DNA from: Nitrosopumilus sp.
GTDB taxonomy: Archaea; Thermoproteota; Nitrososphaeria; Nitrososphaerales; Nitrosopumilaceae
Assembly (NCBI GenBank): GCA_965205215.1
Contig: OZ242041.1
Coordinates: 1,216,001-1,280,000 of the forward strand
DNA length: 64,000 nt
Direction: 5' to 3'
Part shown: one piece after another, positions 7,141 to 29,521 of the stretch
Layout: every line of letters starts with the position of its first letter
Position numbering within the stretch: the stretch's first letter is position 1
Position numbers and translations under genes: made by a program
Notes under the pieces: generated by a model
The model's input: the letters and a program-made list of their open reading frames with translations, nothing else
What the model was told of the DNA's origin: nothing
Databases searched by the model: none

Positions 7141-8733
7141 TCACGTCGCCGCGCCACCGCCACCGCCACCGCCACCGCCACCGCCACCGCCACCACTACC
7201 GCCACCACCCCGCACGTCCTGCAGCCCGCGCGCGACCCTGTCCGGCGCGCCCATGCCGCCGCTTGCCATGACGATCCGGAACATGTCCGCCATGTCTGCC
7301 GCCATCTTCCTGAACGCGTCCTGCACCTCCTGCGCCCCGCGGGAAACGGACTGATCGTCACTGCCGCCTCCCGGGAGCCCGTCCCGGCCAAACGCCGCCC
7401 CGTTTCCGGGCCGGGGGAGGACCGAAACCGAGTCCAGATATTTCTCAAAGCCGCTGAACACGTTGATCCTCCACGACGCCTTGGCGTACTCTGCGCGCAG
7501 CGTCTCTGGGTACAGCACGGCCTGCTTTTCGTACGAGTCGCGCGGGGCGTGCCCCAGCACGTGGTCTGCCGCGTACGGCGCGCACCCAGAGGCCAGCAGC
7601 GTGCTCTTCAGCAGGTCGCGCACCTCGTGCGAGCGCATCATGTACGTGTGCGGGGCGATCTTCTTCTGTATGCCGGCGTTGGCGGCCGCCGCGGAGAACT
7701 TTGAGGACACCCAGACGGGGCTGACCGGGGTGCCGCGCTGCGTTACGAACAGCGGCTCGTCCGCGCCGTGTTTTTTCCCGTATGTGGACTCCTTCCACGC
7801 CAGGCAGTCCCGCAGGTGGGTTACGGCGTCCCTGTCTATGAACGTGGTGTATGGCATGCCGGTCTTGACGCGGACCAGCCTGACCGGCACCGGGCACCGG
7901 TCCAGATCCCACGAGGAGCGGTCCTCCGTCCCAAAGTGCTTTACCATCTGCGGGTACGCCTCAAAGTTGAACCTGTCTGCCATGGTGCTCGAGTCAAGCC
8001 CCGCCTGGAACTTTGCCATCATCACGGCGCGCGCCGTGACGTCCATCCCGCCTGTCGTCATCACCTTGTAAAAGTCCATGAGGCTCATGCCGGAGTCGAT
8101 TGTAACGCCGCCATCGCCATCGCCGCCGCCGTTATGGCGCCTCCTGCCGATTTTTACGTCGACCGGCACGTCGTGCGCGGCAAAGTACGACTTTACGGCG
8201 GCGCACTTGAGCCTGGTCGTGTTTGCAGAGTAGCCTGCTCCGGCCAGCTCCGCCACGTACTGCCTGACTGCGCGGCGCGCGGCCTGCGCGCCGTTTGCCT
8301 CGCAAAATTTGAGCAGCTCCTCCACGTCTGAGAACGACCTGCCGCCTGCGCCCCCAGCCGGGAACTCGGCTCCGGGCAGCCACCTGTTGAACGCCCCGAG
8401 CTCTTCTGCGTACGTCTGCCTGGTGCCTCCCCTCTTCCTCCTCGCTCCGCCGACGTTCTTCAGCCTGGACGAGCCCAGCTGGCCAAGCCAGAACCTGGCG
8501 CTCTCTAGCTCCAGTATGCGGCAGCCGGGCTTTGCCTCCTGCAGTATGCCGCGGGAGCAGGCCCACTCGACGGCGCGCCCGGCCGCCCGGCCGCCCCCGG
8601 TCCCGGCCGCCACCCGGCCCGCCTCGACGTATCCGGCCGCCGGCAGCGATTCCAATATCGGTATGATGTCGCGTTCCGCCTCGTCCAGTTCCTTCCTGCC
8701 TGCGGTGCGCAGCACCTCGTAGTAGAGCACCAT
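7141..8733 (-). CDS. Tyrosine recombinase, paralog A
   Basis: SAM-like N-domain, then RVKTG, HEVR (HxxR), LGH and DSY catalytic-type motifs. A GGTGA SD precedes the ATG; the tail is Gly-rich. Confidence 0.88.
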   Translation of the reverse strand: MVLYYEVLRTAGRKELDEAERDIIPILESLPAAGYVEAGRVAAGTGGGRAAGRAVEWACSRGILQEAKPGCRILELESARFWLGQLGSSRLKNVGGARRKRGGTRQTYAEELGAFNRWLPGAEFPAGGAGGRSFSDVEELLKFCEANGAQAARRAVRQYVAELAGAGYSANTTRLKCAAVKSYFAAHDVPVDVKIGRRRHNGGGDGDGGVTIDSGMSLMDFYKVMTTGGMDVTARAVMMAKFQAGLDSSTMADRFNFEAYPQMVKHFGTEDRSSWDLDRCPVPVRLVRVKTGMPYTTFIDRDAVTHLRDCLAWKESTYGKKHGADEPLFVTQRGTPVSPVWVSSKFSAAAANAGIQKKIAPHTYMMRSHEVRDLLKSTLLASGCAPYAADHVLGHAPRDSYEKQAVLYPETLRAEYAKASWRINVFSGFEKYLDSVSVLPRPGNGAAFGRDGLPGGGSDDQSVSRGAQEVQDAFRKMAADMADMFRIVMASGGMGAPDRVARGLQDVRGGGGSGGGGGGGGGGGGGGAAT

Positions 8734-8749
8734 GGTTTGTCACCTGACT

Positions 8750-8851
8750 TTAGTATGTGATGCTCCTTACAGACGCCGCGGATCCGCCGGAATCCCTCTT
8801 CCCCCCGATACGGACGGTGCCAAACGGCGGGCAGACGCAAATGAAAAGCAT
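8750..8851 (-). CDS. Putative 33-aa upstream ORF / conserved leader of recombinase A
   Basis: MLFICVCPPFGTVRIGGKRDSGGSAASVRSITY*; same length and position as the ORF before paralog B. Confidence 0.35.
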   Translation of the reverse strand: MLFICVCPPFGTVRIGGKRDSGGSAASVRSITY

Positions 8852-8871
8852 GGGATACCTAGCGCTTTTGC

Positions 8872-8892
8872 TCTATTAACCCTGTTTCCCAA
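8872..8892 (-). promoter_or_regulatory. Putative BRE/TATA for the recombinase A unit
   Basis: Minus strand gggaaacagggttaatag, about 25 nt upstream of the ATG at 8851; conserved before paralog B. Confidence 0.5.
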
Positions 8893-9328
8893 TCCTGCTT
8901 TTCCCGCCAAGATCGCGAAGAGTTGGGAACGCGGCGCGCCCGGGCGGCAAGGCCTGCTGATCGTATGGCGTCTGACGCCAGTGACATTCAAGGGGCGGGA
9001 GGAAGGGCGGCAGGGCGCGGGATCACTGCGGGCGCGCGTTCACGGGCCGCGCGCCGGTGGCGCACCGCGGTACGAGTCGCGTGCATGGTGGATGCGGGCC
9101 GCGCGCCATCGGGAGGCGGCAGGCACCACGGGGGGTACGGGAGGCGGCAGGCACCACGGGGGCGGGCGCAAGGGTGGGCCTCCCCGCGCCGTCACCTCCC
9201 CGCGCCCCGCCGAACACGCGCGCCGCCCCGTCTGGCACGTCCAGATCCCTGCCTGCCGGGAAGATCTGGAAGATGCGCATAGTGTTCTCCATCATCCTCT
9301 CGAACATGGCCCGCATGTCCTGCTGGCA

Positions 9329-10786
9329 TTACTGCTGCTCGTGGTGGTGGTGGTGATGGTGGTGTTGATGGTGGTGTTGATGGTGGTGTTGCAGCTGCTG
9401 CGCCCCCTGCGCCGCCCCGTCCGGCCCCCTGCGCCGCCCCGTCCGGCCCCCGCCCCCGCGCCCCCCGGGCCGGAACGCCTCCGAGTCCAGATACCTCTCA
9501 ATGCTGCTGAACACGTTGATCCTCCACGACGCCTTGGCGTACTCTGCGCGCAGCGTCTCGGGGTACAGCTCGGACTGCTTCTCGTACGAGTCGCGCGGGG
9601 AGTGGCCCAGCACGTGGTCTGCCGCGTACGGCGCGCACCCCGAGGCCAGCAGCGTGCTCTTCAGCAGGTCGCGCACCTCGTGCGAGCGCATCCTGTAGGT
9701 GTGCGGGGAGGCCCTCCTCTGTATGCCGGCGCTTGCCGCGGCCCTGGAGAACCTTTCGGATATCCAGCCCGGCCCGACCGGAGCCCCCCGCCGGGTGACA
9801 AACAGCGGCCCTGCCCCGTCGTGCCTCTTCCCCCCGCGCGCGTGCTCACTCGACGCCAGGTAGTCCCGCAGGAGGGACACCGCGTCCCTGTCTATGAACG
9901 TGGTGTACCGCATGCCCGTCTTGACGCGGACCAGCTTGATGGGGACGGGGCACCGGTCCAGGTCCCACGCGGAGCGGTCCTCCGTCCCAAAGTGCTTTAC
10001 TATCTGGGGGTACGCCTCGAAGTTGAACCTGTCTGCCATGGTGCTGGCGTCCAGCCCGGCCTGGAACTTTGCCATCATCACGGCGCGCGCCGTGACGTCC
10101 ATCCTCCCGGACACCATCACCTTGTAAAAGTCCATGAGGCTCATCCCGGGGTCGGCTGCGGCGCCGCGGCCGCCGCCGTTGTCGCCGCCGCGGCGCCTCC
10201 TGCCGACCTTCACGTCGACCCTCACGTCGTGCGCGGCAAAGTACGACTTTACGGCGGCGCACCTGAGCATGGTCGTGTTCGCGGAATAGCCGGATCCTGC
10301 CAGCTCCGCCACGTACCGCCTGACTGCGCGGCGCGCGGCCTGCGCGCCGTTTGCCTCGCAGAATTTCAACAGTTCCTCCACGTCCGAGAACGCTGCACCC
10401 GCCTCGCCCCCCGCCGGGAGCCTGGCATCCGGCAGCCACCTGTTGAACGCCTCGAGCTCCTCCGCGTACGTCTGCCTGGTGCCACCCCTCCTCCTCCTTG
10501 CGCCGCCGGTGTTCTTCAGCCTGGACGTGCCCAGCTGGCCCAGCCAGAACCTGACGCTCTCCAGCTCCAGCACGCGGCAGTCCGGATTTGCCCCTTGGAT
10601 TATCCCGCGGGAGCAGGCCCATTTTATGGCGCGCTCCACGGCGCGCCGGTCCCCGCCCCCGGCCGCCAGCCGGCCCGCCTCGACGTATCCGGCCGCCGGC
10701 AGCAGTTCCAATATTGGCGCGATGTCGCGCCCCGCCTCTTCCAGTTCCTTGCTGTCTGCGGGGCGCAGCACCTCGTAGTAAGGCAC
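9329..10786 (-). CDS. Tyrosine recombinase, paralog B (poly-His tail; in-frame TAA, homologous tail continues to 9023)
   Basis: Highly similar to 7141..8733 with the same motifs. GTG start, because ACG sits where paralog A has ATG. Confidence 0.88.
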   Translation of the reverse strand: MPYYEVLRPADSKELEEAGRDIAPILELLPAAGYVEAGRLAAGGGDRRAVERAIKWACSRGIIQGANPDCRVLELESVRFWLGQLGTSRLKNTGGARRRRGGTRQTYAEELEAFNRWLPDARLPAGGEAGAAFSDVEELLKFCEANGAQAARRAVRRYVAELAGSGYSANTTMLRCAAVKSYFAAHDVRVDVKVGRRRRGGDNGGGRGAAADPGMSLMDFYKVMVSGRMDVTARAVMMAKFQAGLDASTMADRFNFEAYPQIVKHFGTEDRSAWDLDRCPVPIKLVRVKTGMRYTTFIDRDAVSLLRDYLASSEHARGGKRHDGAGPLFVTRRGAPVGPGWISERFSRAAASAGIQRRASPHTYRMRSHEVRDLLKSTLLASGCAPYAADHVLGHSPRDSYEKQSELYPETLRAEYAKASWRINVFSSIERYLDSEAFRPGGRGGGGRTGRRRGPDGAAQGAQQLQHHHQHHHQHHHHHHHHEQQ

Positions 10787-10806
10787 CGTGTTCAGTCACC
10801 CTTTCT

Positions 10807-10908
10807 TTAGTATGTGGTGCCCCCTGCGGGCGCCGCGGATCGGCCGGAATCCTCCACCCACCCGAAGTGGACTGTGCCGAGCGGCGGGGGGACGCGCATG
10901 AGAAGCAT
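10807..10908 (-). CDS. Putative 33-aa upstream ORF / conserved leader of recombinase B
   Basis: MLLMRVPPPLGTVHFGWVEDSGRSAAPAGGTTY*; 17/33 identical to 8750..8851 with no indels. Confidence 0.35.
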   Translation of the reverse strand: MLLMRVPPPLGTVHFGWVEDSGRSAAPAGGTTY

Positions 10909-10928
10909 GAGATAATTAGCGCTCCTGC

Positions 10929-10949
10929 CCTATTAACCCTGTTTCCAAA
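10929..10949 (-). promoter_or_regulatory. Putative BRE/TATA for the recombinase B unit
   Basis: Minus strand ttggaaacagggttaatag, the same motif as at about 8872-8892. Confidence 0.5.
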
Positions 10950-11647
10950 TCCGGCGCCCCGCCCTTCCCCGCAGTCGCGCCGCCGCCTCCGCCGCCTGTG
11001 CGCCCCTTGCGCGCTGCGGCGGCCCCCGCGTACCGGACGCCGCCCCCCCCGACCCGTGCGGCGGCCGCCAGCCGGGATCCGCGCGTGCCCGCCGCGGGCC
11101 TGCCGATCTCCTCCGCGGCAGCGCTCCTCCGCGGCACGGCGCAGCAGGCGCCTTCGCCGGCCGGCATCCCCGCCGCCGGCGCGTCAGGGCTTCGCCGGCC
11201 GTCGGACGCCGGCCCCGGCCCCGCGCCCCCCGATGCCGCAGCCGGTCTGCGCAGGCAGCCCGCGCCGCCCCCCGGCGCGGGCGCCAGAAGCGGCGCGGGC
11301 GCCGTCAGGGCCCCCGGCCGCCATGTGTGGCGCGCGCCGGGGGCCGAGGCGCGGGGGCGAGATCGGACGGCCGCCAAAGCCGGGCGGCGACGGCCGCGAC
11401 GGCGGGTTCTCACGGCCGGTGTATGCAGGATGGCATTATGGCGGCGGCCTCCAGACCGCTCCCCCCCCCGGTCCGGAATGGGGCGGCGCCGGCATCTGGC
11501 CCGATAGGCATTTAGCCAGATCTGGCCAAGGGGATCGCGGGTTGCTACCCATTCTGCAATCCCCGGCCGCCACCTATCCCTTTGACGTGTGGGTGGCGGC
11601 CGTGCCCGGCTTCCGAACCCGCGACAGGGCCAAATTTTACACTATTT

Positions 11648-11675
11648 TGCCGGCATAAGGATCATTATACCGCAT
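11648..11675. promoter_or_regulatory. dif/lox-like recombination site L (11-6-11)
   Basis: TGCCGGCATAA-GGATCA-TTATACCGCAT. Confidence 0.7.
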
Positions 11676-11700
11676 AGTTACAGGGTCACGTCCCACAAGG

Positions 11701-11718
11701 CTTATTTAAGATTTTCAA
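11701..11718. promoter_or_regulatory. TATA-like box inside the putative invertible segment
   Basis: cttatttaagattttcaa; the minus strand reads gaaaat-CTTAAATA (BRE+TATA-like). Confidence 0.5.
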
Positions 11719-11795
11719 TGGCGGATTTTTCCCGCGCGTTATGCCGGCAAGTTTTCCGGCATAACGATCCGAATATTTGCAAAAATGCCGAAAAC

Positions 11796-11823
11796 TTCCG
11801 GCATAATGATCCTTATGCAGGCA
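11796..11823. promoter_or_regulatory. dif/lox-like recombination site R, inverted relative to L
   Basis: TTCCGGCATAA-TGATCC-TTATGCAGGCA; the spacer is the exact reverse complement of the site L spacer. Confidence 0.7.
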
Positions 11824-12007
11824 ATGTACGGCGCACAAGGCGTCTAGACGTGGGGGAGGGGACGCCCTGTGCGCCGCGGATCCCGCACTGCGGGACGCCC
11901 GGGTTCCAGACGGCCGCCCCTTCGGGGGCCGCAGGCGCCGCGCCCGCGGCGGCCTCCCCGGGGGGGGGGGGCGGCGTCCGGCCCCTGGATCGGTAGGTGC
12001 GCCTGAT

Positions 12008-15000
12008 ATGGGTAGGCGGCGGTTCGCGCAAACCCTGTGCCTTGCGGCCATACTTGCATTGGCGGCCGCGGCCCTCGCGGCGCCGGAGGGGCTCGCGGAG
12101 CCCGCCCTTGCGCAGGCCCTGCTTGACAACCCCGTGGCCGCCGGCAGTATTGCGGACACCGGCGATATCCTGCTTCGCGAAGCAACAAAAATTACCACCT
12201 TCGAGGTGGACGGCACCGTCTACGCGATAGTCACCATAACGTCAGAGACCTCGCATGCCGGCATCCAGATACTCAACCTCTCAAATCCCGCCGCCCCGAC
12301 CGCGGCAGGCAACCTGTCAGACACCGCGGACCTCCTGCTTACTTTCTCGCATGACGCGGCCGTCTTTACGGTCTCCGGCAACACGTACGCCGCAGTGACC
12401 TCGCCCGGAGACGGCGGCGTCCAGATGCTCCAGCTGGCAGACTCCGGCGGGCTGCTTGCAAACCCGACGGCCGCCGGAAATATTGAAGACGGCGGCGGGC
12501 GCCTGCTCGGCAACGCGAAAGACATATCCCTCTTTGAGGTCTCCGGCGCCACGTACGCGGCAGTGGCCGGAGGCGCCCGTTTCGGAGACAACGGCGTCCA
12601 GATGCTAAAGCTTACGAGTGACACGGGGACCCTGCTTGCAAACCCCAGGGACGCCGGAAAGATTGCAGACAACAACTCCCTCCTGCTTGAAGGCGCCGAC
12701 GGCATCGCCACCTTTGAGGTCTCCGACGCCATATACGCCGCGGTCGCCGCAGGCCGCGACGACGGCGTCCAGATGCTAAAGCTTACAAACGACGCGGGGA
12801 CCGCCCTGCTTTCAAGCCCCGAGGACGCCGGAAAGATTGCAGACGGCGGCTCCCTCCTGCTTGACGGCGCCGATGGCATCGCCACCTTTGAGGTCTCCGG
12901 CGCCATATACGCCGCGGTCGCCGCAAGTGGCGACAACGGCGTCCAGATGCTAAAGCTTACAAACGACGCGGGGACCGCCCTGCTTGCAAACCCCACGGAC
13001 GCCGGAAACATTGAAGACGGCGGCTCCCTCCTGCTCGACAACCCTGATGACATCACCATCCTCACGGCGTCCGGCACCATATACGCCGCGGTCACCGCAA
13101 GTGGCGACAACGGCGTCCAGATGCTAAAGCTTGCAAACTCCAGCGGGCTGCTTGCAAACCCGGAGGACGCGGGAAAGATTGAAGACGACGGCGATACCCT
13201 GCTTGAAAGTCCGACCGGAATCGCAACATTCGAGGATTCCGGAACAACGTACGCCGCGGTCGCCGCACTCTTCGAAGACGGCGTCCAGATACTGCAGCTC
13301 ACCGCCGCCGGCACCCCCGCCGACAACACCGCGCCGACTGTGGACGCGGGGGCGGCCCAGACCGTAAGCGAGGGCGATATGGTGACGCTGACGGGCACCG
13401 CCACGGACCCCGACGATAGCGACGTTCTGACGTACGCGTGGACGGTGAGCCCCGCAACCCCCGCCATTACCATAAACGACGACGACGCCCTCTCGACCAC
13501 GTTCACGGCCCCCGAGGTCACAACGGACACCGACTTTGTATTCACGCTTACCGTAAACGACGGCACCGTGGACGTATCGGACACCGTTACGGTCACCGTA
13601 AGCAACGTGAACCGCGCGCCCATAGCGGACGCCGGGGGCGACCTCATAGTCGCGCAGGGCGTCACCGTAATGCTTGACGGCACCGGCTCGTACGATCCGG
13701 ACGGCGGCGTCCTCGACTACACCTGGCTCTCGATCGGGAATGTCGTCACGCTCACGGGCGGCAACACCGCGACCCCGACGTTCACGGCCCCCTCCTCTAC
13801 TGCAACATTCATCATCGCCCTTGTCGTCAACGACGGGGAACACAATGACCGGGACGAAATCACGGTAACCGTCCCCGCGCTGCCGGTATCGGACGCCGGC
13901 TCGGACGTCCCCGCGCTTGCAGGCGACACCGTTGCGCTCAACGGCACCGGCTCGACGGGCACCGCCCTCACGTACTTTTGGAACCAGACGGCCGGCCCCG
14001 ACGTAACGCTCGACTTTATAGACGTCCGGCCGGTGGGCTGGATTGGGGACACCGAGCCTGACGGGCTCCTGCTCCACAATCCGCTCGGCGTCGCGGCATT
14101 CGAGCACGGCGGAACGCCGTATGTGGTCGCGGCCGCAAACGTCGACAACGCCGTCCAGGTAATCGACATGTCCGACCCCGCAAGCCCGGCGGCCGTAGGC
14201 AACCTTACTGACGGCGACAGCCGCGAGCTCAGCGGCCCCCGCGGCATCGACATATTCGAGCACGGCGGCACCATATACGCCGCGGTCACCGCCGAACGTG
14301 ACGACGGCGTCGAGATAGTCAGTTTGGCCGACCCCGCAAACCCGGCGGGGGTGGGCCGCCTCACCAACGATAACAACCGCGAGCTCAACGGCCCCCGCGG
14401 CATCGACATATTCGAGCTCGGCGGCACCGCGTATGCGGCGGTGGCCGGGCGTGACGACGACGGCGTCCAGATAATCAGCCTGGCCGACCCCGCAAACCCG
14501 GCTGCGGCGGGCAAGATTGGCAGGGGCGCCAACGTCCAACTTGACAACCCCGAGGACGTCGCCGTATTCGGACACTCCGGCGCCACGTATGCGGCGGTCA
14601 CCGCGACCAACGACGACACCGTCCTGATACTGAAACTGACGGACGGCTCGGGGCAGCTGCTTGCAGACCCCGTAGTGGCAGGCCTGCTCGAAGACAACTC
14701 CACCCTGGCGTTAGAAGACCCCCGCAACATCGACATATTCGAGGCAGGCGGCACCGCGTACGCCGCGGTCGCCTCATCCTCAGACCACGGCGTCCAGATA
14801 ATCAGCCTGGCGGACCCCGCAAACCCGGCTGCGGCGGGCAAGATCGTAGCCTCTGACGGCTCTGGCCTTCATCTTGGGACTGCCTATGGCATCGACATAT
14901 TCGAGGTCAACGGGGCGCCGTACGCCGCGGTCACCGCACAGGCCGGTCTTGGTAACGTCGAGATAATCGATTTGTCCGACCCCGCAAACCCCGAGCGCGT

Positions 15001-18000
15001 GGGCGACTTTCACAGCAACGCCACCTTCCAATTACCCAATACGAACGGCGTCGCCGCCTTCGAGGTCGGCACCAAGACCTACGCGGCGGTCACCTCGGCC
15101 GATTTCGTCGACATTCCCCTCAACGGCATCCGGGTCCTCGAGCTGGCCGACCGCGCCGCCCCCAGATTCACGGCGCCCGCCGCCCCCGCCACCCTCGAGT
15201 TCGACCTCGCCGTAACGGACGCGGCGTCCCAGGCCGACACCGACTCCGTGACGGTCGCCGTCCGCGACCCGTTTGTCACCACCTGGAACACCACTGCCGC
15301 CAACCAGGCCATAAAGATCGACGTCGGCACCTCCACCGCCCCCTACGACGTCGACTGGGGCGACGGCTCCGCGCAGACGGGCGTCACGGGCGACCAGACC
15401 CACACGTATGGGGAGGCGGGCATCCACACGGTCTCCATCACCGGCGGCCTCGAGCAGTTCAGGCTCGGCGACACGGACAGGGCCAACAGGGAGCGCCTCG
15501 CCTCCATAGAGCAGTGGGGCGACGTCGGGTGGACCGGCATGCGGGACGCGTTCCGGGGGGCGTCGAACATGGCATACAACGCCGCCGACTCGCCGGACCT
15601 CTCCGGCGTCACCGACATGGGCGGCATGTTCCGCGAGGCCACCGCGTTCAACGGCGACATATCCGGCTGGGACACCTCCGGCATAACCGACATGTCCGAC
15701 GCGTTCAACGGCGCCCGCTCCTTCAACCGGACCCTCAGCGACTGGAACACCTCGTCCGTCACCGACATGGGCAACATGTTCAACGGCGCCCACGCGTTCA
15801 ACGGCGACATATCCGGCTGGGACACCTCCCGCGTCACCGACATGGGCGGCATGTTCAACGGCGCCATAGCATTCAACCGGGACATCAACACCGTGACCGA
15901 CACGGCCACCGGCGAAACCCGGTGGGACACCTCGTCCGTCACCGACATGGGCCGCATGTTCAGCGGCGCCGCCGCCTTCAACGGCAACGTATCAGCCTGG
16001 GACACCTCGTCCGTCACCGACATGAACCGCATGTTCTTCTCGGCCCAGGCGTTCGACCAGGACATCGGCGCGTGGGACGTCTCGGCCGCCACCGACATGG
16101 ACCGCATGCTCACCGGCGCCACCGCCTTCTCCCAGAACCTCGGAAAGTGGTACGTCACGCTGGACACGGACGCCCCCCGGGTGTCGGATACGGACAGGGT
16201 GGCGGGCACCATATCGGCCCAGAACTCCGTGCTTGACGGCCACTCCCCCTCGTACGCCGCCGCGGCGGAGGGCGACTCGGCAAAGTTCGAGGTGACGGCG
16301 GCCAAGGTCCTCAGGCTGAAGGACGGCCAGACGGTCACGCCGGACACGACGCTCGAGGTTACGGTAACGGTCAACGGCACGGGCGTCCTTGGGACGGGCA
16401 ACAGCGTGACGGTACCGGTCGCCGCCGCGGCCTCCGCAAACACCGCGCCTACCGTCAACGCGGGTACGGACCGGGCGGTGAACGAGCGCACCGTCGTGAC
16501 GCTGGCGGGCACCGCCACGGACCCCGATACGGGCGACAGCCTGACGTACGCGTGGACGGTGAGCCCCGCATCCCCCGCAATCACGATAACCAACAGCGAC
16601 GCGCTCAGCGCCAGCTTTACGGCCCCCGAGGTGACATCGGACACCGACTTTGTATTCACGCTTACGGTAAACGACGGGACCGTGGACGCAACGGACACCG
16701 TCACAATCACCGTAAGCAACGTCAACCGCGCGCCTACGGCGGACGCCGGGGCCGACCAGGCGGTCAACGAGAGGGAGGCCGTGACGTTTGATGGCAGGGG
16801 CTCGTCTGACCCGGACGGCGACGACCTCACGTATTCTTGGAGCCAGACTGCCGGCAGCCCCACCGCATCGCCCACGTCCACCGACGGCCCAATACTCGCG
16901 TTTGTCGCCCCCGAGGTGTCATCGGACGCCGTCCTCACCTTTACGCTTACCGTATCCGACGGCGGCTCCCTGTCAGGCACGGACACGGTCAACGTAACCA
17001 TAAGGAACGTCAACCTCCCGCCTACGGCGGATGCCGGCGCGGACCAGGCCGCAGACGAGAACACCGTCGTGACGCTTGACGGCTCCGGCTCGTCGGACCC
17101 CGACGGCGACCGCCTCTTGTATTCGTGGAAGCAGACTGCGGGCAGCCCCACCGTGTCGCTCTCAAGCAACACCGCGCAGAGCCCCACGTTCACGGCCCCG
17201 GCGGTCAACGCCGAGACGGCCCTCACCTTCAGGCTTGCCGTAAGCGACGGGACGGCGGACGTCGACACCGACACCGTCGTGGTAACGGTGCGGGACGTGT
17301 CCGACCTGACGGTAAGCGCGGGCGCGGACCGGGATGTAGACGAGGGTGACACGGTCACGCTGGCCGCGACGGTATCAAACGCCACGCTGCGGGTCACCTT
17401 TGAGTGGACCACAGATTCGAGCATCGCCATATCGGACGACGACACCAGGAGCGCCTCGTTTACGGCGCCAATGGTCGACTCGGACACCGACTATACCTTT
17501 ACCGTCACGGCCACCGACGGCAACAAGACGGCGACCGACTCCGTTGTCATAACCGTGCTAGACGTCCCCCTGGCGGTCGACGCGGGTGAGGACCGGACCG
17601 CAGACGAGGGCTCTACGGTGGACCTTGCGGGGACGGTGGAGGGCGCCTCCCTGCAGGTTTCCTTTGCGTGGACCACAGATTCGGGCATTGCACTGTCGGG
17701 CAGCGGCACCCGGAGCGCCTCGTTCACCGCCCCCATGGTCGACGCCGACACGCAGTACACCTTTACGCTCACGGCCACCGACGGCGCCGAGACCGCGTCC
17801 GATACCGTCACGATAACCGTCGCCGACTCGCTGCCGCTCGAGGCGGACGCGGGGAGAGACCGCACCGTCCGCGGGGGCGACTCCGTCACCCTTACGGGGA
17901 CCGTGCGCAACGCCGCGTCCTCCAGCCCCACATACTCGTGGACCCAGACGGCGGGCACCCCCGCAGTATCCCTGAGCGGCAGCTCCACCCCCGCCGCCAC

Positions 18001-19966
18001 GTTCACGGCGCCCGACGACTCGGCCACCCTCACATTCAGGTTTGCGGCCACCTCCGGCCCCGCCACCGCGGCTGACGACGTCACCATAACGGTCGTCGCG
18101 CGCGAGATGGTGGTCGCCGACGCGGGGCCCGACCAGTCAGTCGACCCGGGCGACGCCGTACATCTTGACGGCACCCGGTCGGCGGGCGAGGCCCCCCTGG
18201 CGTACTCGTGGACCCAGACTGCGGGGCCCGTCGTGCTCATAACCGCCGCGGGCACGGCCTCCCCCTCGTTTGAGGCCCCCGACTTCCGCGCGTCGCTCAC
18301 ATTCGAGCTGACCGTAACCGACGCGGACGGCGGCACGGACACGGACACCGTTACGGTAACGGTCCGCAACATCGTACCCGTCGCGCACGCCGGGTACGAC
18401 CGGAACGTCGGCGAGGAGATGACCGGGACGCTTGTCGGCTCGAGATCGTACGACCCGGACGGCGACCCCCTCACGTATTCCTGGACCCAGACTGCCGGCA
18501 GCCCCGCCCTGGCCCTCTCCGATTACAGCGCGGCGAACCCGACGTTTGCCGCCCCCCGGGTCTCGGCGGACACCCCGTTCACCTTCCGGCTTACCGTATC
18601 CGACGGGCTGGCCTCGGACACTGACACAGTCGTAATAACGGTAAGGGACGACAACGTGAACCGCACCCCCGACGCGCGCTCGGGGCCGCACCAGACGGTC
18701 CGCGAGGGCGAGACCGTATACCTTGACGGCGCCGGCTCGTCGGACCACGATACCGGCGACGTGCTGCGGTACTCGTGGGAGCAGACGGCGGGAAGCCCCG
18801 AGGTTGCGCTCTCCGACCACACCGCGGCGAGCCCGACGTTCGTCGCGCCCCAGGTCGGCTCGTACACGGAGCTCACGTTCACGCTTACCGTATCCGACGG
18901 GCTGGCCACCGACACGGACACCACGACCATAAGGATACTCGACGTGCCCCGCAACAGCCCGCCGGCCGCGGACGCGGGTGCGGACCAGACGGTCACGGAG
19001 GGCGACACGGTCCGCATGTACGCCACGCGCTCGTCTGACCCGGACGACGGCGACTACCTCAGGTATTCGTGGAGCCAGACTGCCGGCCCCGCAGTCGCCC
19101 TGTCGAGCACCGGCTCGTCGTGGCCCACGTTCACGGCGCCCGACGTGCTGTCGGACACCGCCGTCACATTCGAGCTTACCGCGACCGACAGGAGGGGGGC
19201 CACGGACACGGACACCGTTACCATAACCATACTGGACGTACCCGAGACGGACGCCGACCCGATCCTCACCATCGTGCATGAGCGCGCAAGCGTCAAATCG
19301 GGCGACCACTCCACCAGCTACAAGTCCGACGCCCGCTGCTGGGACCTCGAGGACGGGGACATCTCCAACCTTGTAACCACGTCCGTGGCGTTCCACCCAA
19401 ACGGCAGGGCTACCATATCCTACGAGTGCACCGACAGCGACGGCAACCGCGACACGACCGTGCGCATAGTCGCGGTGTCCGGCTCGGCCCCGCCCGCGCT
19501 GTACCTGAACGGGCTTCCCCTGGTGGAGGTCGCGCAGGGCTCCTCATATGTGGACGCGGGCGCCACCTGCGTTGACCCCGAGGAGGGCGACATCAGCGGC
19601 AGGGTCAGGGCCTCGGGTACGGTCGACACCTCCCGCGCGGGCACCTACACCGTGTTCTACTCGTGCTATGACGGCGACGGCAACGGCGACACCGGCGTCC
19701 GGATAGTGATTGTACAGCCCGCGGGCGCCGACCTGGCCCCGAGGCTGACGGTGCCCGGCGACGTCACCGTTGCGGTGGGCGGCTCGTTCACGCCGCCCGC
19801 GGCCACCTGCACCGACGCCGAGGACGGGGACATCACCCACAAGGTAGGGGTCGACGACTCCGCGGTCGACACCTCCACGCCCGGCAGGTACACCGTATTC
19901 TACACCTGCGCCGACTCGGCCGACAACTTTGTCTCCGGCTCCCTGTACGTCAGCGTCAACCCGTAG
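12008..19966 (+). CDS. Giant secreted modular surface protein / adhesin (LVIVD-like propellers, many PKD-like domains, DUF285 block, C-terminal DUF5011-like Ig domains)
   Basis: 2652 aa with signal peptide MGRRRFAQTLCLAAILALAAAALA, AGGTG SD upstream, and the same repeat classes as 3..6845. Confidence 0.93.
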   Translation: MGRRRFAQTLCLAAILALAAAALAAPEGLAEPALAQALLDNPVAAGSIADTGDILLREATKITTFEVDGTVYAIVTITSETSHAGIQILNLSNPAAPTAAGNLSDTADLLLTFSHDAAVFTVSGNTYAAVTSPGDGGVQMLQLADSGGLLANPTAAGNIEDGGGRLLGNAKDISLFEVSGATYAAVAGGARFGDNGVQMLKLTSDTGTLLANPRDAGKIADNNSLLLEGADGIATFEVSDAIYAAVAAGRDDGVQMLKLTNDAGTALLSSPEDAGKIADGGSLLLDGADGIATFEVSGAIYAAVAASGDNGVQMLKLTNDAGTALLANPTDAGNIEDGGSLLLDNPDDITILTASGTIYAAVTASGDNGVQMLKLANSSGLLANPEDAGKIEDDGDTLLESPTGIATFEDSGTTYAAVAALFEDGVQILQLTAAGTPADNTAPTVDAGAAQTVSEGDMVTLTGTATDPDDSDVLTYAWTVSPATPAITINDDDALSTTFTAPEVTTDTDFVFTLTVNDGTVDVSDTVTVTVSNVNRAPIADAGGDLIVAQGVTVMLDGTGSYDPDGGVLDYTWLSIGNVVTLTGGNTATPTFTAPSSTATFIIALVVNDGEHNDRDEITVTVPALPVSDAGSDVPALAGDTVALNGTGSTGTALTYFWNQTAGPDVTLDFIDVRPVGWIGDTEPDGLLLHNPLGVAAFEHGGTPYVVAAANVDNAVQVIDMSDPASPAAVGNLTDGDSRELSGPRGIDIFEHGGTIYAAVTAERDDGVEIVSLADPANPAGVGRLTNDNNRELNGPRGIDIFELGGTAYAAVAGRDDDGVQIISLADPANPAAAGKIGRGANVQLDNPEDVAVFGHSGATYAAVTATNDDTVLILKLTDGSGQLLADPVVAGLLEDNSTLALEDPRNIDIFEAGGTAYAAVASSSDHGVQIISLADPANPAAAGKIVASDGSGLHLGTAYGIDIFEVNGAPYAAVTAQAGLGNVEIIDLSDPANPERVGDFHSNATFQLPNTNGVAAFEVGTKTYAAVTSADFVDIPLNGIRVLELADRAAPRFTAPAAPATLEFDLAVTDAASQADTDSVTVAVRDPFVTTWNTTAANQAIKIDVGTSTAPYDVDWGDGSAQTGVTGDQTHTYGEAGIHTVSITGGLEQFRLGDTDRANRERLASIEQWGDVGWTGMRDAFRGASNMAYNAADSPDLSGVTDMGGMFREATAFNGDISGWDTSGITDMSDAFNGARSFNRTLSDWNTSSVTDMGNMFNGAHAFNGDISGWDTSRVTDMGGMFNGAIAFNRDINTVTDTATGETRWDTSSVTDMGRMFSGAAAFNGNVSAWDTSSVTDMNRMFFSAQAFDQDIGAWDVSAATDMDRMLTGATAFSQNLGKWYVTLDTDAPRVSDTDRVAGTISAQNSVLDGHSPSYAAAAEGDSAKFEVTAAKVLRLKDGQTVTPDTTLEVTVTVNGTGVLGTGNSVTVPVAAAASANTAPTVNAGTDRAVNERTVVTLAGTATDPDTGDSLTYAWTVSPASPAITITNSDALSASFTAPEVTSDTDFVFTLTVNDGTVDATDTVTITVSNVNRAPTADAGADQAVNEREAVTFDGRGSSDPDGDDLTYSWSQTAGSPTASPTSTDGPILAFVAPEVSSDAVLTFTLTVSDGGSLSGTDTVNVTIRNVNLPPTADAGADQAADENTVVTLDGSGSSDPDGDRLLYSWKQTAGSPTVSLSSNTAQSPTFTAPAVNAETALTFRLAVSDGTADVDTDTVVVTVRDVSDLTVSAGADRDVDEGDTVTLAATVSNATLRVTFEWTTDSSIAISDDDTRSASFTAPMVDSDTDYTFTVTATDGNKTATDSVVITVLDVPLAVDAGEDRTADEGSTVDLAGTVEGASLQVSFAWTTDSGIALSGSGTRSASFTAPMVDADTQYTFTLTATDGAETASDTVTITVADSLPLEADAGRDRTVRGGDSVTLTGTVRNAASSSPTYSWTQTAGTPAVSLSGSSTPAATFTAPDDSATLTFRFAATSGPATAADDVTITVVAREMVVADAGPDQSVDPGDAVHLDGTRSAGEAPLAYSWTQTAGPVVLITAAGTASPSFEAPDFRASLTFELTVTDADGGTDTDTVTVTVRNIVPVAHAGYDRNVGEEMTGTLVGSRSYDPDGDPLTYSWTQTAGSPALALSDYSAANPTFAAPRVSADTPFTFRLTVSDGLASDTDTVVITVRDDNVNRTPDARSGPHQTVREGETVYLDGAGSSDHDTGDVLRYSWEQTAGSPEVALSDHTAASPTFVAPQVGSYTELTFTLTVSDGLATDTDTTTIRILDVPRNSPPAADAGADQTVTEGDTVRMYATRSSDPDDGDYLRYSWSQTAGPAVALSSTGSSWPTFTAPDVLSDTAVTFELTATDRRGATDTDTVTITILDVPETDADPILTIVHERASVKSGDHSTSYKSDARCWDLEDGDISNLVTTSVAFHPNGRATISYECTDSDGNRDTTVRIVAVSGSAPPALYLNGLPLVEVAQGSSYVDAGATCVDPEEGDISGRVRASGTVDTSRAGTYTVFYSCYDGDGNGDTGVRIVIVQPAGADLAPRLTVPGDVTVAVGGSFTPPAATCTDAEDGDITHKVGVDDSAVDTSTPGRYTVFYTCADSADNFVSGSLYVSVNP

Positions 19967-20703: not shown

Positions 20704-21441
20704 TTAGATTAGTTTTGTATGTCGAATTTTTTCAATCAAGTTAACCAGCATCTCACCCTGATTGGATCTTTTAAAGTCCACGTAAGTTGCCCTAGTTTGT
20801 ATGTTCGAGGGTATCTCCGTACCTTCTTCGACGATCAAAATGGTCGGTTTTCCAGTAGCCTGTCCTATCTCATCAATAACATTCTGGGCGGACTGGAATT
20901 TTGCATTTTTAGTTTCGGTGTCTTTTGTGAGCATGGCAAGAAGCGCGTTGGATTCGTCTATCATTCTGCTGATTTGTACACCTGGTGGCAGATCCGGCTT
21001 GCCTCTCTCGGAGGCGGACACGACCGTAAAGCCCATGGCTTTCATGAACCTACTGACAAGACTGTACAGGTCGTCATTCTCCGGCCGCATGGAATAGCTG
21101 ATAAAGACGGTAAATCCTTTCAGCGAGAACGGGGGGAGGCCTTCTTTCAATGGTACGACTGTACGTAGCTCACCTTCAATCAATCTGTAGCGGTATTCTC
21201 CGCTGATACCTACATCACTATAGATGACAAAGAGTCCTGATTTCCCTTCAATATTTTTGATATTTTTCAGTCCAACGATTTCCGATCCAAACGGCTTAAT
21301 CACTTGCACGTCGGTTTCATGTACAACGCCACCGTTTGAGTCATAAAACTTGATGGAATACTTTCGTTGTTCGTCTGACATGTTTGTCATGAAGATTTCA
21401 CTACCTTCCCATAATATGTCGTATTGACCGGTAAGATACAT
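20704..21441 (-). CDS. TIR-domain protein with a beta-rich N-terminal domain
   Basis: TVFISYS...MIDESNALLAMLT...NVIDEIG...PTILIVE...YVDF matches the TIR pattern, including the catalytic-position Glu. Confidence 0.78.
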   Translation of the reverse strand: MYLTGQYDILWEGSEIFMTNMSDEQRKYSIKFYDSNGGVVHETDVQVIKPFGSEIVGLKNIKNIEGKSGLFVIYSDVGISGEYRYRLIEGELRTVVPLKEGLPPFSLKGFTVFISYSMRPENDDLYSLVSRFMKAMGFTVVSASERGKPDLPPGVQISRMIDESNALLAMLTKDTETKNAKFQSAQNVIDEIGQATGKPTILIVEEGTEIPSNIQTRATYVDFKRSNQGEMLVNLIEKIRHTKLI

Positions 21442-21768: not shown

Positions 21769-22533
21769 TCAACTGCTGGCGTCGCTGTACGCTTCTGCCT
21801 TCCCTTCGCAAGATAGGCGCAAGACGGTGGAACCGTCGCAGTCGGGCATCTCCCTGCTGTCTTCCCCCATCTTGGCCGAGATGCGGAACCTTCCAGAGAT
21901 GGCCATGGCCCCCTCTTCCTCGTATGGGGCGGGGCCTACCGTGGAGCCGTCTTCTGCGAGGCGGAGCGACAGGGTCATGCGATCCTGCTCTACTTCCTTG
22001 GCTTGGCGGTGGATGCTGTCGATTCTAAACCCGTCCCGCATGCGTCCGAACAGGGGGGTCATGATCTCATCCTTCAGTTCCCTTATGTGCCATGGTAGGC
22101 TGCACACCTCTGCCGCCTTGTCCTGGTCATATCCTGCTCCTTCTGGATCCGCATCCAATCGAACTATCCTGCTCTCTTCCGGGATTATTGTGGAGTCGGT
22201 ATAGTATATCTTGTACATCCGGCCCGGGCTGCGGACAAAGACCTTGCCGTCCTTGATTGCATCCTTCCCTGTACGAGATATGGAGTACTTGCCGTCGTAT
22301 GCTTCTATCAACTCCTCTTTTTCGCAAATCTCAAGGATCTTTTTACTCACCGGCTCCATTCCCGGAAAGAGCTCAGAGGAGAGTGACTCTGCACTGGCTC
22401 TGCCCCGCATGTCCCTTACGTGCAGCAGTACCGGCAGAATGTACCGGTGCGTGGGTATGGATATCTCAGCGTATACTATGTAGCATTCCAGCTTGATCTC
22501 TGCATCCGTCTCCATTCTGTTCATAGCCTTCAA
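21769..22533 (-). CDS. Hypothetical protein (possible winged helix), coupled to the helicase
   Basis: 254-aa ORF overlapping the helicase stop; wHTH-like segment 'ILEICEKEELIEAYDGKYSISRTG'. Confidence 0.7.
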   Translation of the reverse strand: MKAMNRMETDAEIKLECYIVYAEISIPTHRYILPVLLHVRDMRGRASAESLSSELFPGMEPVSKKILEICEKEELIEAYDGKYSISRTGKDAIKDGKVFVRSPGRMYKIYYTDSTIIPEESRIVRLDADPEGAGYDQDKAAEVCSLPWHIRELKDEIMTPLFGRMRDGFRIDSIHRQAKEVEQDRMTLSLRLAEDGSTVGPAPYEEEGAMAISGRFRISAKMGEDSREMPDCDGSTVLRLSCEGKAEAYSDASS

Positions 22534-24977
22534 CCCCCATGTACAGGCGTGTTCTTGGCAAGTGCGCCCATCAACGATCTTGAGCGGATCATGGCGCTTC
22601 TGTCCCCCACAATCACGTTCTGGTACCGCGCCCTTGTTATCGCGACGTTGATACGGTTGGGATTTTCAAGAAAGAGCGTGGGGTGGTTGTTTGCGATGCT
22701 CAGGAACACCAGGTCAGCCTCGTGCCCTTGAAAAGAGTCCAGCGTGCGGCATTGGATTGTCACGATCTCCCTATCGCCGTCCCGCAGCGCAAATTCGTAT
22801 CCACTCTTGGGCTGCGCGATCCTTTTGATGTGGGACAGTATGGTCTGCTGCTGCCTTGTGTAAAACGCCAGTATGGCCACCTCCCACGGCAGGCCGTGAT
22901 CTGGCTTGGCGATGCCCGCAAACGTGTGGAATTTTACCAGTTCGTCCACTATGCGTTCGGCCTCGGCCTCGGATCTGTTCTGGGCAGCACCCCTGACGTC
23001 GATCCAGATTGACCTCTTTTCGAATTCGTCGTACTGCCACTCCCGTTCGGATCCCACGGCCTCTGGGGTCTCAAGTGCCCGCCCTTCGTACACGTGCGCC
23101 CGGGGAAACTCTGCTATCTCGGGGTGCATCCGGTACTGTCGTTGTAAGAGCACGTGCCGCTTTGCAAAGTCTTCTTCCGGGATGCCCTCTGTCATGATCG
23201 TGTCCTCCCTTGCCCCATAGCCGTACTGGAGCAGCTGCAGAATGGACGGGAGTGCAATCTTTTTGACGTCTTCCAGCCTGAGGCGCACGGCCTTGTCGTC
23301 TGCCGGCATGAGCCTCTCGATCTCCTGGCTGACCCGGTGCCCCGAATCATCCTCGTGTCCGGACAGCGATATGATACGCCACGCCATCTGCGCCCCCCAC
23401 GTAAGGTCCTTGTCCGGCCCGTTCCGCGGGAGACGGACCCTTGGCTTTTTCTGGTTTAGTTTGTCACGTATCTCGTCGTATCCCCTGATTATGACACGCC
23501 CGGAGTTGGCGTCTTGGAAGAAGCCGCTGCCAGCTTTTGATATGGAGTCTGCCGTTCCAACCACGATTCCCTTCCATGCATGCCCCGGCGGCCTGTCGTC
23601 GGCATCGTGCAGGGCGACCCCGTGCTTGTCGCACTGGCGCCTGTATGCGTCTTTCACAGGCTGATCCTCCACGACCGCTATGATGCGTCGGTCTCCACTG
23701 GAGGCCAGAAACGCGTCGAGGCACGCCTGGCCCTCCTCGCGCCCGATGCATGCGTTGACATGCAGGCCAAATTCTTCCTGGCTTGTGTGGGGGGCAAGCT
23801 GTTTGGTATCCCCCACTATTATCCAGCGCTTGGCGTGCAGAGCCGGAACCAGAAATTCCTGAAACGTGGTCTTGGAGGCCTCGTCGAGTATCATGACGTC
23901 GAACATGTCTGTGCTGCGATCTCTGATGTCAGGGTGCTGGAGTATGCCCATGGTTGTCCCACACACGAGGTTTGCGCAATCTCGCGCCATGCTTCCTATG
24001 GTGTCGTCGTGCTGGATCTGCTCGTACAGGGCTCTTTGCGCCTCGTTTTTGTCAGGAATATTATCAAGATGATTGGATATTTTTTCCTGCATTGTGTTTA
24101 CGCACGTGTCGTACAGGTACCCACGCACGAGATCGGAGATCTTCTCCGAGTCGCCTATCCTCAGCGGTATGATGTTGGAGTCGGTAGGCTTCTTTGTGTA
24201 CTGGTCTGTGATCTTTTCCAGTAGGTTGTCCACCGCTATGTGAGTCGACGCGCAAAACAGTACGCGTTTTCCCCGGCGTACAAGCTGGTAAACCAGCTCG
24301 CAAAGTGCGGTGGTTTTGCCAGAGCCTGGCGGTCCTTCCAAAAATCCAAAGTCCGGAGTGGCGAGGGCCTTTTTCACGAATTTCTTCTGTTGGTCAGAGC
24401 CATCGCGTCCGTCCAAGACAAACCACTTGTTTACGCGCTGCTCCTCCACGTCTTTCAGCGCCACTCGATCCCTGTCGTAAAAGATCTTTAACAAGGCGGA
24501 ACTCTCCGGCCGTGGCTTATGTAGCAGGGACTCTATGGCCCTCTTCTGGGCTATCATCGTGTGTGTGTTGTGGTAGACTCTCAGCTTTTCGGTTCTTGGT
24601 TTGCGCGCTAGCTGCCACCTTCCGTCAATGTCACGTTCAATGATGCTGATTTTTGACTCGTCGTTCTGATCTCTGTCCATGTCCTCGTATACATGCTTTA
24701 CATGATCTTCGCTCATAACGTGTCGCCGGTCTTCATCGCTCATCTTGCCTGGTTTGATCCATACAGGTTTGTCATGCCGTGTTTTTTGCCCGGAATTGAT
24801 CCCGTGCGGTGACTCGTACGTATAATCAAATATTATGGGATTTTCCCGATAGTACTTTGTTATGAGTTTGAGGTACTGCAGGTATGGCTGCAATCTCTCT
24901 TTCACCTGCTTTTTGTTGTAGCTGGAGTCCTCGTCTTCCATGACCTCCTTGTAGAGATCAGAGGTTGTGTATGGCAT
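22530..24977 (-). CDS. SF1 Upf1/DNA2-like helicase
   Basis: GPPGSGKT, STHIAVDN, ILDEAS, VGDTKQL, QYRMHPEI, DSFQGHE, NVAITRAR. Confidence 0.92.
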   Translation of the reverse strand: MPYTTSDLYKEVMEDEDSSYNKKQVKERLQPYLQYLKLITKYYRENPIIFDYTYESPHGINSGQKTRHDKPVWIKPGKMSDEDRRHVMSEDHVKHVYEDMDRDQNDESKISIIERDIDGRWQLARKPRTEKLRVYHNTHTMIAQKRAIESLLHKPRPESSALLKIFYDRDRVALKDVEEQRVNKWFVLDGRDGSDQQKKFVKKALATPDFGFLEGPPGSGKTTALCELVYQLVRRGKRVLFCASTHIAVDNLLEKITDQYTKKPTDSNIIPLRIGDSEKISDLVRGYLYDTCVNTMQEKISNHLDNIPDKNEAQRALYEQIQHDDTIGSMARDCANLVCGTTMGILQHPDIRDRSTDMFDVMILDEASKTTFQEFLVPALHAKRWIIVGDTKQLAPHTSQEEFGLHVNACIGREEGQACLDAFLASSGDRRIIAVVEDQPVKDAYRRQCDKHGVALHDADDRPPGHAWKGIVVGTADSISKAGSGFFQDANSGRVIIRGYDEIRDKLNQKKPRVRLPRNGPDKDLTWGAQMAWRIISLSGHEDDSGHRVSQEIERLMPADDKAVRLRLEDVKKIALPSILQLLQYGYGAREDTIMTEGIPEEDFAKRHVLLQRQYRMHPEIAEFPRAHVYEGRALETPEAVGSEREWQYDEFEKRSIWIDVRGAAQNRSEAEAERIVDELVKFHTFAGIAKPDHGLPWEVAILAFYTRQQQTILSHIKRIAQPKSGYEFALRDGDREIVTIQCRTLDSFQGHEADLVFLSIANNHPTLFLENPNRINVAITRARYQNVIVGDRSAMIRSRSLMGALAKNTPVHGG

Positions 24978-29300: not shown

Positions 29301-29521
29301 GCGAGATCAACGGCATCTTGGGCAGGACTGTTGCCATCGTCTGGCGGGAAACGGCCGATTGGAAGCAGGGTGACTTTGAGCGTGACAAGGCATTCGTGGC
29401 GGAGCAGAAAATGATCGCGGAGGCGGACGAGATCTACGTCAACGGAGATTCTCTCATTCCAGGAGTAAAACCGGTGGAAAAACTGTTCCGGGCGCGGATG
29501 TTTGCCGGGACGGACGGATGA
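26355..29521 (+). pseudogene. mod: Type III R-M methyltransferase (Mod), frameshifted at a G16 tract (ORFs 26355..27263 and 27284..29521)
   Basis: N-terminus DLDFGIYRIMN; C-part DPPYN and DYFAGSGTT. The frame break coincides with G16 at 27213-27228. Confidence 0.88.
27213..27228 (+). repeat. G16 homopolymer in mod
   Basis: Counted directly; G14 or G17 restores the frame. Confidence 0.9.

Follow-up and report, generated by a model that had tools for sequence, protein, structure and literature searches.

Bacteria classically vary their surface by programmed DNA inversion, a process that is almost unexplored in Archaea. One locus in a Nitrosopumilus sp. genome raises the question of whether an archaeon switches a surface protein in this manner: in the window analysed here (the whole stretch of 64,000 nucleotides, G000:C1:1216001-1280000, where G000 is the source genome, a single contig of 2,098,239 bp with 60% G+C), two short inverted sites, L and R, are placed between two tandem recombinase genes, rec1 and rec2, and the gene for a 2652-amino-acid (aa) surface protein, and the segment that they enclose holds a promoter-like box. 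The answer favoured here, at a probability of roughly 0.6, is that this segment actively inverts and thereby switches the surface gene.

In the proposed mechanism, rec1, rec2 and their paralogs would bind the two 28-bp core sites, each composed of two 11-bp arms around a 6-bp overlap; L would synapse with R, and strands would be exchanged within the overlaps. Because the L and R overlaps are reverse complements, the ~142-bp segment would be inverted, and because the sole strong box lies inside it, the orientation of the segment would decide whether transcription proceeds into the surface gene or toward the recombinase genes. Five such switches of three site types, as described below, could produce combinatorial phase variation of the cell surface. 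Taken together, the loci constitute a well-supported candidate for a multi-locus archaeal inverton system. Sequence analysis establishes the sites and their family, the covariation of spacers, the intactness of the recombinases, the conserved synteny and the promoter-like box; we infer the inversion itself, the pairing of recombinases with sites, and the direction and use of the promoter.

Inverted Core Sites and Their Spacers

Both core sites read as the initial annotation had described them, at the same coordinates, in the 11-6-11 form and with exactly reverse-complementary spacers (Table 1). In a repeat search the pair emerged as an inverted repeat whose 26-nt arms are 92% complementary and separated by 126 nt, and the whole L-to-R unit spans 176 bp (11648-11823). 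Strand exchange by tyrosine recombinases requires identical overlap regions in the partner sites, and inverted asymmetric overlaps lead to inversion. Across eight independent site families (three types from the source genome and five elements from other genomes), none of the 48 spacer positions departs from perfect reverse complementarity between L and R, whereas the arms are mismatched at 53 of 176 positions; seven distinct spacer sequences occur among these families. Within the three source-genome types, whose discovery involved no spacer criterion, the spacers are complementary at 18/18 positions and the arms match at only 47/66. The first scans of the other genomes demanded complementary spacers; an inverted-repeat scan with neither a spacer nor a palindrome rule recovers the same pairs. 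Nor is the spacer relation automatic, since the decayed locus L055, one of six pair-bearing loci in other genomes and devoid of a surface gene, has 5-nt non-complementary spacers.

Because the spacers stay complementary while the arms differ, L and R are best understood as recombination partner sites set for inversion and not as operators. The same arrangement had been put forward in the initial annotation, and it gains from the finding that complementarity has been kept in five paralogous and five other-genome elements despite changing spacers. That sites of the L/R type are recombinase targets at all is considered highly probable.

The distance between paired sites falls into classes of 147-149 bp (five elements), 167-169 bp (four elements) and 188 bp (one element), with steps of approximately two helical turns. 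An extra half-site within the segment has a fixed location in elements of types I and II and matches the own arms of each element. The spacing classes and this arm-covarying half-site fit a protein-DNA machine that synapses two sites across a very short loop.

Five Elements in the Source Genome

The region 11627-11950 is present three times in the source genome. The CCGGCATAANGATC pattern has exactly nine genomic occurrences, eight of them in three clusters (G000:981.7k, 1109.7k and the window); homology among the three cluster regions covers 320-590 bp (88% and 79% identity) and extends into the leader and signal peptide. Giant open reading frames (ORFs) of 4590 aa, of 2791 plus 1944 aa, and of 2652 aa follow the clusters. 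ATAA-N6-TTAT strings number 21 in the genome, six of which lie in the three cluster elements and two more in a fourth pair (61691/61840, spacers TGCCCA/TGGGCA) located between two divergent giant-gene arrays. A profile built from these four elements revealed a fifth (1973306-1973481) between a giant gene array and recE, one of the recombinase paralogs; its spacers are likewise TGCCCA/TGGGCA, and all four of its arms carry ACAA/TTGT ends in place of ATAA/TTAT. Three elements (type I) thus share the spacers GGATCA/TGATCC and two have TGCCCA/TGGGCA, with three site types in total; the type I elements lie 118-128 kb apart in direct order, and types II and III are single copies.

A giant surface gene, or an array of such genes, lies 120-430 bp downstream of each of the five elements. 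When read toward that gene, all five are collinear: the conserved flank, CTATTTTG (in type III CTATTGTG), comes first, then core L, after ~15-25 nt an AT-rich box, then the block CCCGCGCG (in type III TTTGCGCG) with the half-site behind it, and lastly core R. A structural scan for two internally palindromic 11-6-11 sites, 90-260 bp apart, with at least 20/28 matches and reverse-complementary, non-palindromic spacers, returned five hits in 2.1 Mb, which are exactly the five elements; the same scan on five block-shuffled genomes returned 0, 0, 1, 0 and 0 hits.

The giant surface ORFs of the genome (1700-5200 aa) cluster in five high-GC islands. In the array at 1946-1973 kb, successive frames abut (...1956593/1956594, 1967351/1967352), and these frames may represent operons or one larger, stop-interrupted gene.

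Recurrence in Other Nitrosopumilaceae

A search of related genomes for the same site pair beside recombinase homologs and surface genes, as suggested in the initial annotation, was successful. Among eight loci taken around recombinase homologs at least 52% identical to rec2, the rule-free scan found an inverted pair within 1.5 kb in six; of the remaining two, L053 is truncated where its contig stops, and no pair is present at L058. The complete module of recombinase, inverted pair and surface gene is present in three Nitrosopumilaceae genomes besides the source genome, and a pair flanked divergently by recombinase and surface gene occurs in five cases (the window, G000:1973k, G145 L033, G065 L035 and OZ250186 L056). 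Recombinase homologs are encoded by 26 of 200 other family genomes, with several copies in a few. A contig in the European Nucleotide Archive (ENA) encodes two homologs in tandem, P0001 and P0002, with 77% and 66% identity to rec2. Distant homologs (35-40% identity) in G132 and G028 have neither a dif-like pair nor a giant gene alongside; the module is confined to the closer clade.

Table 1. Features of the window, of the source genome and of related genomes. Positions refer to the window unless another sequence is named. SD, Shine-Dalgarno; BRE, transcription factor B recognition element; PWM, position weight matrix; MAG, metagenome-assembled genome.
Feature	Position	Strand	Sequence, evidence or context
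rec1, 530-aa tyrosine recombinase, poly-Gly tail	7141-8733	-	Pfam, family alignment
Conserved leader/promoter region of rec1	8734-8942	-	Contains GGTTAATAG and SD-like AGGTGA
rec2, 485-aa tyrosine recombinase, His/Gln-rich tail	9329-10786	-	Pfam, NCBIfam, Foldseek
Conserved leader/promoter region of rec2	10787-10973	-	81% mean column identity to rec1 upstream region
Core site L	11648-11675	+	TGCCGGCATAA-GGATCA-TTATACCGCAT, 11-6-11
Segment predicted to invert, given strand exchange within spacers	11665-11806 (~142 bp)		Site geometry
TATA/BRE-like box	11701-11720	both scored	CTTATTTAAG at 11701-11710; genome-trained PWM
Internal extra half-site	11739-11747	-	Reversed TTATGCCGG = CCGGCATAA, exact copy of arm sequence
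Third site-like unit M	11754-11781	+	TTCCGGCATAA-CGATCC-GAATATTTGCA
Core site R	11796-11823	+	TTCCGGCATAA-TGATCC-TTATGCAGGCA, 11-6-11
GC-rich leader of surface gene	11824-12007	+	G12 tract 11960-11971; SD-like GGTAGGTG 11992-11999
2652-aa surface protein gene	12008-19966	+	Signal-peptide-like N-terminus, Pfam domains
recA	G000:84430		82% identical to rec1
recE	G000:1973850		65% identical
recB	G000:602008		39% identical
Inverted pair, AGAGCA/TGCTCT, 169 bp	G145 (L033 = L064)		Surface gene and recombinase, divergent
Inverted pair, AGGACA/TGTCCT, 168 bp	G065 (L035 = L059)		Recombinase and 2831-aa DUF285 protein
Inverted pair, TGGCTA/TAGCCA, 167 bp	OZ250186 (L056)		Giant PKD protein and recombinase
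Inverted pair, AATGTA/TACATT, 188 bp	OZ250186 (L054)		Pair downstream of recombinase, before 751-aa beta-propeller protein
Inverted pair, TTAAGA/TCTTAA, 167 bp	Langseth MAG (L057)		Recombinase on one side
High-GC islands of giant ORFs	G000:C1 28.9-82, 982-996, 1110-1125, 1213-1236, 1931-1973 kb		
CAP12/Pycsar-type TIR protein	20704-21441		
SF1 helicase	22530-24977		
Type III-like methylase plus Res pair	27284-32677		
PIF1/UvrD-like helicase	32708-36517		
Type ISP restriction-modification enzyme	37453-41688		

Recombinases

The two tandem tyrosine recombinases named in the initial annotation are paralogous minus-strand ORFs (79% identity over 435 aa) that retain the catalytic positions. Both match Phage_int_SAM_1 (PF02899; 25.4 bits for rec1 and 29.3 bits for rec2, each above cut-off) and Phage_integrase (PF00589; 28.1 bits for rec2, above the cut-off of 27.1, and 22.0 bits for rec1, below it), and both contain VRVKTG, SHEVRDLL and LGHxPRDSYEKQ. 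Four residues (R287, K289, H369 and R372) do not vary in a 17-sequence alignment, and two more (H395 and Y401) reach at least 90% conservation; judged by these residues and domains, rec1 and rec2 are members of the tyrosine recombinase superfamily. The usual His-to-Tyr distance in tyrosine recombinases is ~9 residues; here one conserved Tyr follows the His by 6 residues and a second by 13, and either of the two could be the nucleophile.

Membership in the XerA, XerC/D or FimB/FimE families was rejected, as the scores of rec1/rec2 are far below the equivalog cut-offs: 40.6/39.5 bits versus 220 for XerA_Arch (the best NCBIfam match of rec2), 34.1/39.2 bits versus 335 for XerC and 27.3/29.3 bits versus 330 for XerD, while the tyrosine-type DNA invertase (FimB/E-type) model NF007370 gives 15.8 bits versus 221 for rec1 and no hit at E up to 1 for rec2. 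The best Foldseek match of the AlphaFold2 (AF2) model of rec2, a mediocre model with a mean predicted local distance difference test (pLDDT) score of 60 and a poorly modelled C-terminal third, is XerA 5hxy (E 7e-7), with lambda Int, XerD, XerH and Cre as the other best matches. The recombinases form a divergent Xer-like clade of ~500 aa, whose homologs bear a sole name in any source, "tyrosine-type recombinase/integrase".

Five paralogs were found in the source genome by tblastn (rec1, rec2, recA, recE and recB), and these are also its only PF00589 matches; a canonical XerA was not found there. The conserved region upstream of rec1 is common to that of rec2 and to that of a paralog at G000:84212-84430. 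The more distant recB stands beside a 2481-aa gene, where no inverted pair was found.

The C-terminal tail of rec1 (7141-7230) includes a run of ~25 glycines and that of rec2 (9329-9400) a His/Gln-rich run, HHHQHHHQHHHHHHHH; homologs are Gln-rich at the same place. Between rec2 and L (10916-11640), G+C reaches 75-86%, and a C9 tract (11461-11469) lies in this GC-rich spacer upstream of L. A minus-strand ORF at 10916-11413, whose tail (..GAPDLETGLIGQER) resembles the C-terminal tail of recombinase homolog P0002, may be what is left of a third recombinase gene in the tandem. Elsewhere in the genome, a 418-aa open frame (G000:C1:1129569-1129991, minus strand) scores 33 bits to the N-terminal half of the XerA model, with no PF00589 match, and may be a further divergent recombinase-like gene.

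Promoter-Like Box and Leader

In the source genome, AT-rich boxes are sharply concentrated at 30-34 nt before the start codon, and position -1 relative to ATG is preferentially C, a pattern that indicates many leaderless mRNAs. An oriented BRE/TATA matrix was trained on 380 such ATG genes. The giant and recombinase genes carry SD-like motifs and long leaders, which fits leadered mRNAs. The TATA-like box reported in the initial annotation is present in the window segment; its minus strand scores 14.4 bits, with a predicted transcription start site (TSS) at ~11680, and reads across L toward rec2, and its plus strand scores 10.4 bits, with a predicted TSS at ~11741. The 14.4-bit hit is the best in the upstream region and lies above the 99.99th percentile of random genome positions, and no hit of at least 6.5 bits was obtained between R and the ATG of the 2652-aa gene. 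A promoter-like box is found inside all five elements (8.6-14.4 bits), each segment holding the only strong TATA/BRE-like box upstream of its gene. The AT-rich box is gene-proximal in G145 and gene-distal in all source-genome elements; this difference was set aside as a hint of two states, given that the segments are not alignable and G065 misfits.

The leader of the window gene is homologous to the leaders of two paralogous loci. As stated in the initial annotation, an SD precedes the gene, 8 nt upstream of the ATG. The G12 tract lies 37 nt upstream of the same ATG, and the leader homopolymer tracts are candidates for slipped-strand variation.

Orientation and Alternative Explanations

Several results weigh against an active switch. 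No strand-change joint was present in the assembled Logan contigs of four runs aligned to window 10700-12500, so that the two orientations of 11665-11806 expected from the initial annotation did not appear there; these contigs end at paralog branch points (e.g., 11659 and 11675) and drop rare variants, and because they break at paralogous repeats they cannot show that a flipped form is absent. None of the five assembled elements has the opposite orientation, all being the same relative to their genes, and for none of them could an ortholog in a related species be aligned well enough to reveal an evolutionary flip. Beside three of the five elements there is no recombinase gene, and the single fim-like locus first pictured is in this respect, and in view of the number of elements, too narrow. 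A third site-like unit, M, whose left arm and spacer (11754-11770) repeat those of R in direct orientation with 79-89% identity, is found in all three type I copies, is lacking in types II and III, and has no role in a simple two-site inversion model. Lastly, promoter direction is ambiguous. The better BRE was said to point away from the surface gene, which holds for the window copy and for type I, but in the aligned box of type II the strands are about equal (12.6 bits gene-ward versus 11.9), and in type III the gene-ward strand is the better (10.6 versus 8.6 bits). The matrix calls the strand correctly in 76% of cross-validated cases, and a 4-bit strand difference is seen in 21% of true-strand and 3% of wrong-strand cases. 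The suggestion that the switch is possibly OFF in this assembly would follow from the away-strand of the window box, but given types II and III and the accuracy of the strand call, the assembled state may be either ON or OFF.

Comparison across genomes and samples yielded further observations. Element DNA has matches in 0 of the 200 other family genomes, and the G065 element has no match in nine other genomes of its genus, save a 25-nt match inside the G145 recombinase gene; inner-segment alignments between genomes score 12-27 in both forward and reverse-complement form, a range that favours neither orientation. Seventy-five metagenome stretches of the Joint Genome Institute (JGI), retrieved with an orientation-neutral site motif, were discarded as chance matches because each has a single match, no homology beyond the motif and no recombinase hit. 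In runs X1 and X2, the two that contain most of the stretch, the sole contig over 11676-11719 carries five variant letters of the paralog at G000:1109757-1109780, at ~1.5-2x the flank depth, and the window's own variant is absent from both runs; these letters could reflect strain variation or exchange between element copies.

The uniform orientation of the five elements and the lack of a flipped form in contigs are what would be expected if the sites were operators only, bound by the recombinase-like proteins or by some other factor so as to repress the promoter or draw it into a loop with no DNA rearrangement, and the placement of L, the half-site, M and R around a TATA-like box with helical phasing is compatible with such a role. 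Operators, however, have no need for complementary spacers amid drifting arms, a relation that holds in 8/8 intact families with seven spacers, and the neighbouring proteins keep a complete tyrosine recombinase active site; this explanation is accordingly judged unlikely. Inversion may alternatively act on a leader and not on a promoter, with transcription starting at a fixed promoter outside the segment, such as the AT-rich CCAAATTTTACACTATTTTG left of L, and with one segment orientation terminating or destabilising the transcript. The cwpV switch of Clostridioides difficile works in this way, one orientation terminating or destabilising the transcript. All five elements retain the CTATTTTG part of this AT-rich flank, which differs by one change in type III; the matrix gives the flank 6.9 bits when read on the plus strand, with a TSS predicted at ~11671, and 9.6 bits when read on the minus strand, and T-runs occur on both segment strands (GGATTTTTCC and CATTTTTGC). 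Since the 6.9 bits of the outside box are well below the 10.4-14.4 bits of the inside box, and since T-runs in both orientations make no orientation-specific terminator evident, an invertible leader is thought rather improbable.

Identical L and R spacers in the three type I elements would also permit recombination between loci, by which promoters or gene heads could be moved or large chromosome segments inverted, and the X1/X2 contig with the letters of the 1109k element hints at exchange or homogenisation of inner segments in other samples. Direct-repeat recombination would, however, delete >100 kb, housekeeping genes included, and the single-copy types II and III still keep the paired inverted design, which renders exchange between loci a very unlikely purpose of the sites. 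Least plausible is the notion that the 176-bp units are miniature mobile elements or integrase attachment (att) relics with no regulatory role. Multiple copies, a length of ~176 bp, terminal inverted repeats and a multi-copy recombinase family of patchy distribution among relatives (the 26/200 genomes above) are reminiscent of mobile DNA; even so, all copies precede a giant surface gene at an equivalent place and in one orientation, and their homology does not stop at the repeats but reaches into the leader and signal peptide. Target-site duplications were not seen, copies of different type have diverged too far for recent transposition although their architecture is kept, and att sites would be direct repeats far apart.

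An inversion switch for the surface gene therefore remains the preferred explanation. A broader extension of it, namely a genome-wide archaeal network in which three recombinase/site specificities of a new Xer-derived invertase clade flip five adhesin promoter segments, is put forward only tentatively and is on balance doubtful. Such a network would control giant adhesin genes and arrays of up to ~27 kb each, the switch at G000:61.7k would toggle between two divergent arrays, and in the divergent modules one promoter would alternately drive adhesin or recombinase, resulting in a self-regulating switch.

Surface Protein and Neighbouring Genes

The 2652-aa protein has Pfam matches to K319L-like PKD (12 stretches), DUF285, PKD, Bact_surface_Ig-like and Big_9, and a sub-threshold match to LVIVD (19.4 bits versus a cut-off of 20.2). 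A similar giant gene ends at window position 6845. Directly after the 2652-aa gene, G+C falls from ~67% to 38-50% (window 20400-41700), and this region is a defence-type island (Table 1).

Significance and Comparison With Known Systems

The locus unites, in a combination that is seldom available, a defined site grammar, a cognate recombinase clade, several targets and natural variants in specificity, which can be compared by experiment; the targeted proteins are giant and adhesin-like and are encoded in Nitrosopumilaceae genomes of high GC. If inversion takes place, the system is relevant to surface variation of symbiotic ammonia-oxidising archaea toward host or viruses and offers a source of small orthogonal recombinase/site pairs from archaea. 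Should the genome-wide network also prove real, Archaea would gain their first programmed inversion system for surface variation with a defined mechanism, and this in host-associated ammonia oxidisers.

In the fimS switch of E. coli, FimB and FimE, two adjacent paralogous tyrosine recombinases, invert a short promoter segment upstream of an adhesin gene. The window locus likewise combines two adjacent paralogous recombinases, a short inverted-repeat-flanked segment with a promoter-like box, and an adhesin-type gene downstream. It differs from fimS in its archaeal host, in recombinases of ~500 aa with an extra N-terminal domain, in 28-bp dif-like cores versus 9-bp repeats, in five target loci of three site types, and in recombinase genes that are divergent from, and not co-directional with, the target gene. 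The 11-6-11 sites with ..ATAA/TTAT.. inner ends are shared with Xer/dif, and XerA is the closest family of the recombinases by profile (~40 bits) and by fold; unlike the one dif per replicon, which lies at a terminus and serves as a direct repeat in dimers, ten core sites are arranged in five inverted pairs upstream of surface genes, and the predicted outcome is inversion instead of resolution.

Multi-locus systems exist among the Mollicutes, where the mpl genes of Mycoplasma penetrans have invertible promoters at multiple loci and the vpma genes of Mycoplasma agalactiae undergo Xer1-driven inversions. There, in a manner resembling the candidate system of the present genome, several surface genes have their own or a common invertible segment, and the invertases are Xer-related tyrosine recombinases. 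The Nitrosopumilaceae system belongs to another domain of life and another recombinase clade, its targets are giant (2000-5000 aa) and include whole arrays, and it has three putative site specificities with presumably matching recombinase paralogs. DNA inversions have also been reported for Ureaplasma mba (PMC3047005).

For Archaea, a 2021 review of tyrosine recombinases treats phase variation, in the text available, only as a general function and cites bacterial work for it (PMC8371274), and a literature search on Thaumarchaeota or Nitrosopumilus with phase variation, inverton or recombinase, supplements being outside its scope, yielded nothing on the subject. The statement in the initial annotation that no archaeal equivalent has been described is nearly right, but twelve putative archaeal invertons have been reported from long reads of 42 Euryarchaeota/Crenarchaeota data sets and proposed to serve phase variation (bioRxiv 10.1101/2023.03.11.532203). 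Those invertons, like the elements described here, are short chromosomal segments flanked by inverted repeats; they are supported by reads, and the portion of the text consulted assigns them no recombinase, site structure or target class. The present case, known from assembled sequence alone, lies in the Nitrosopumilaceae and comes with a defined recombinase family and site grammar.

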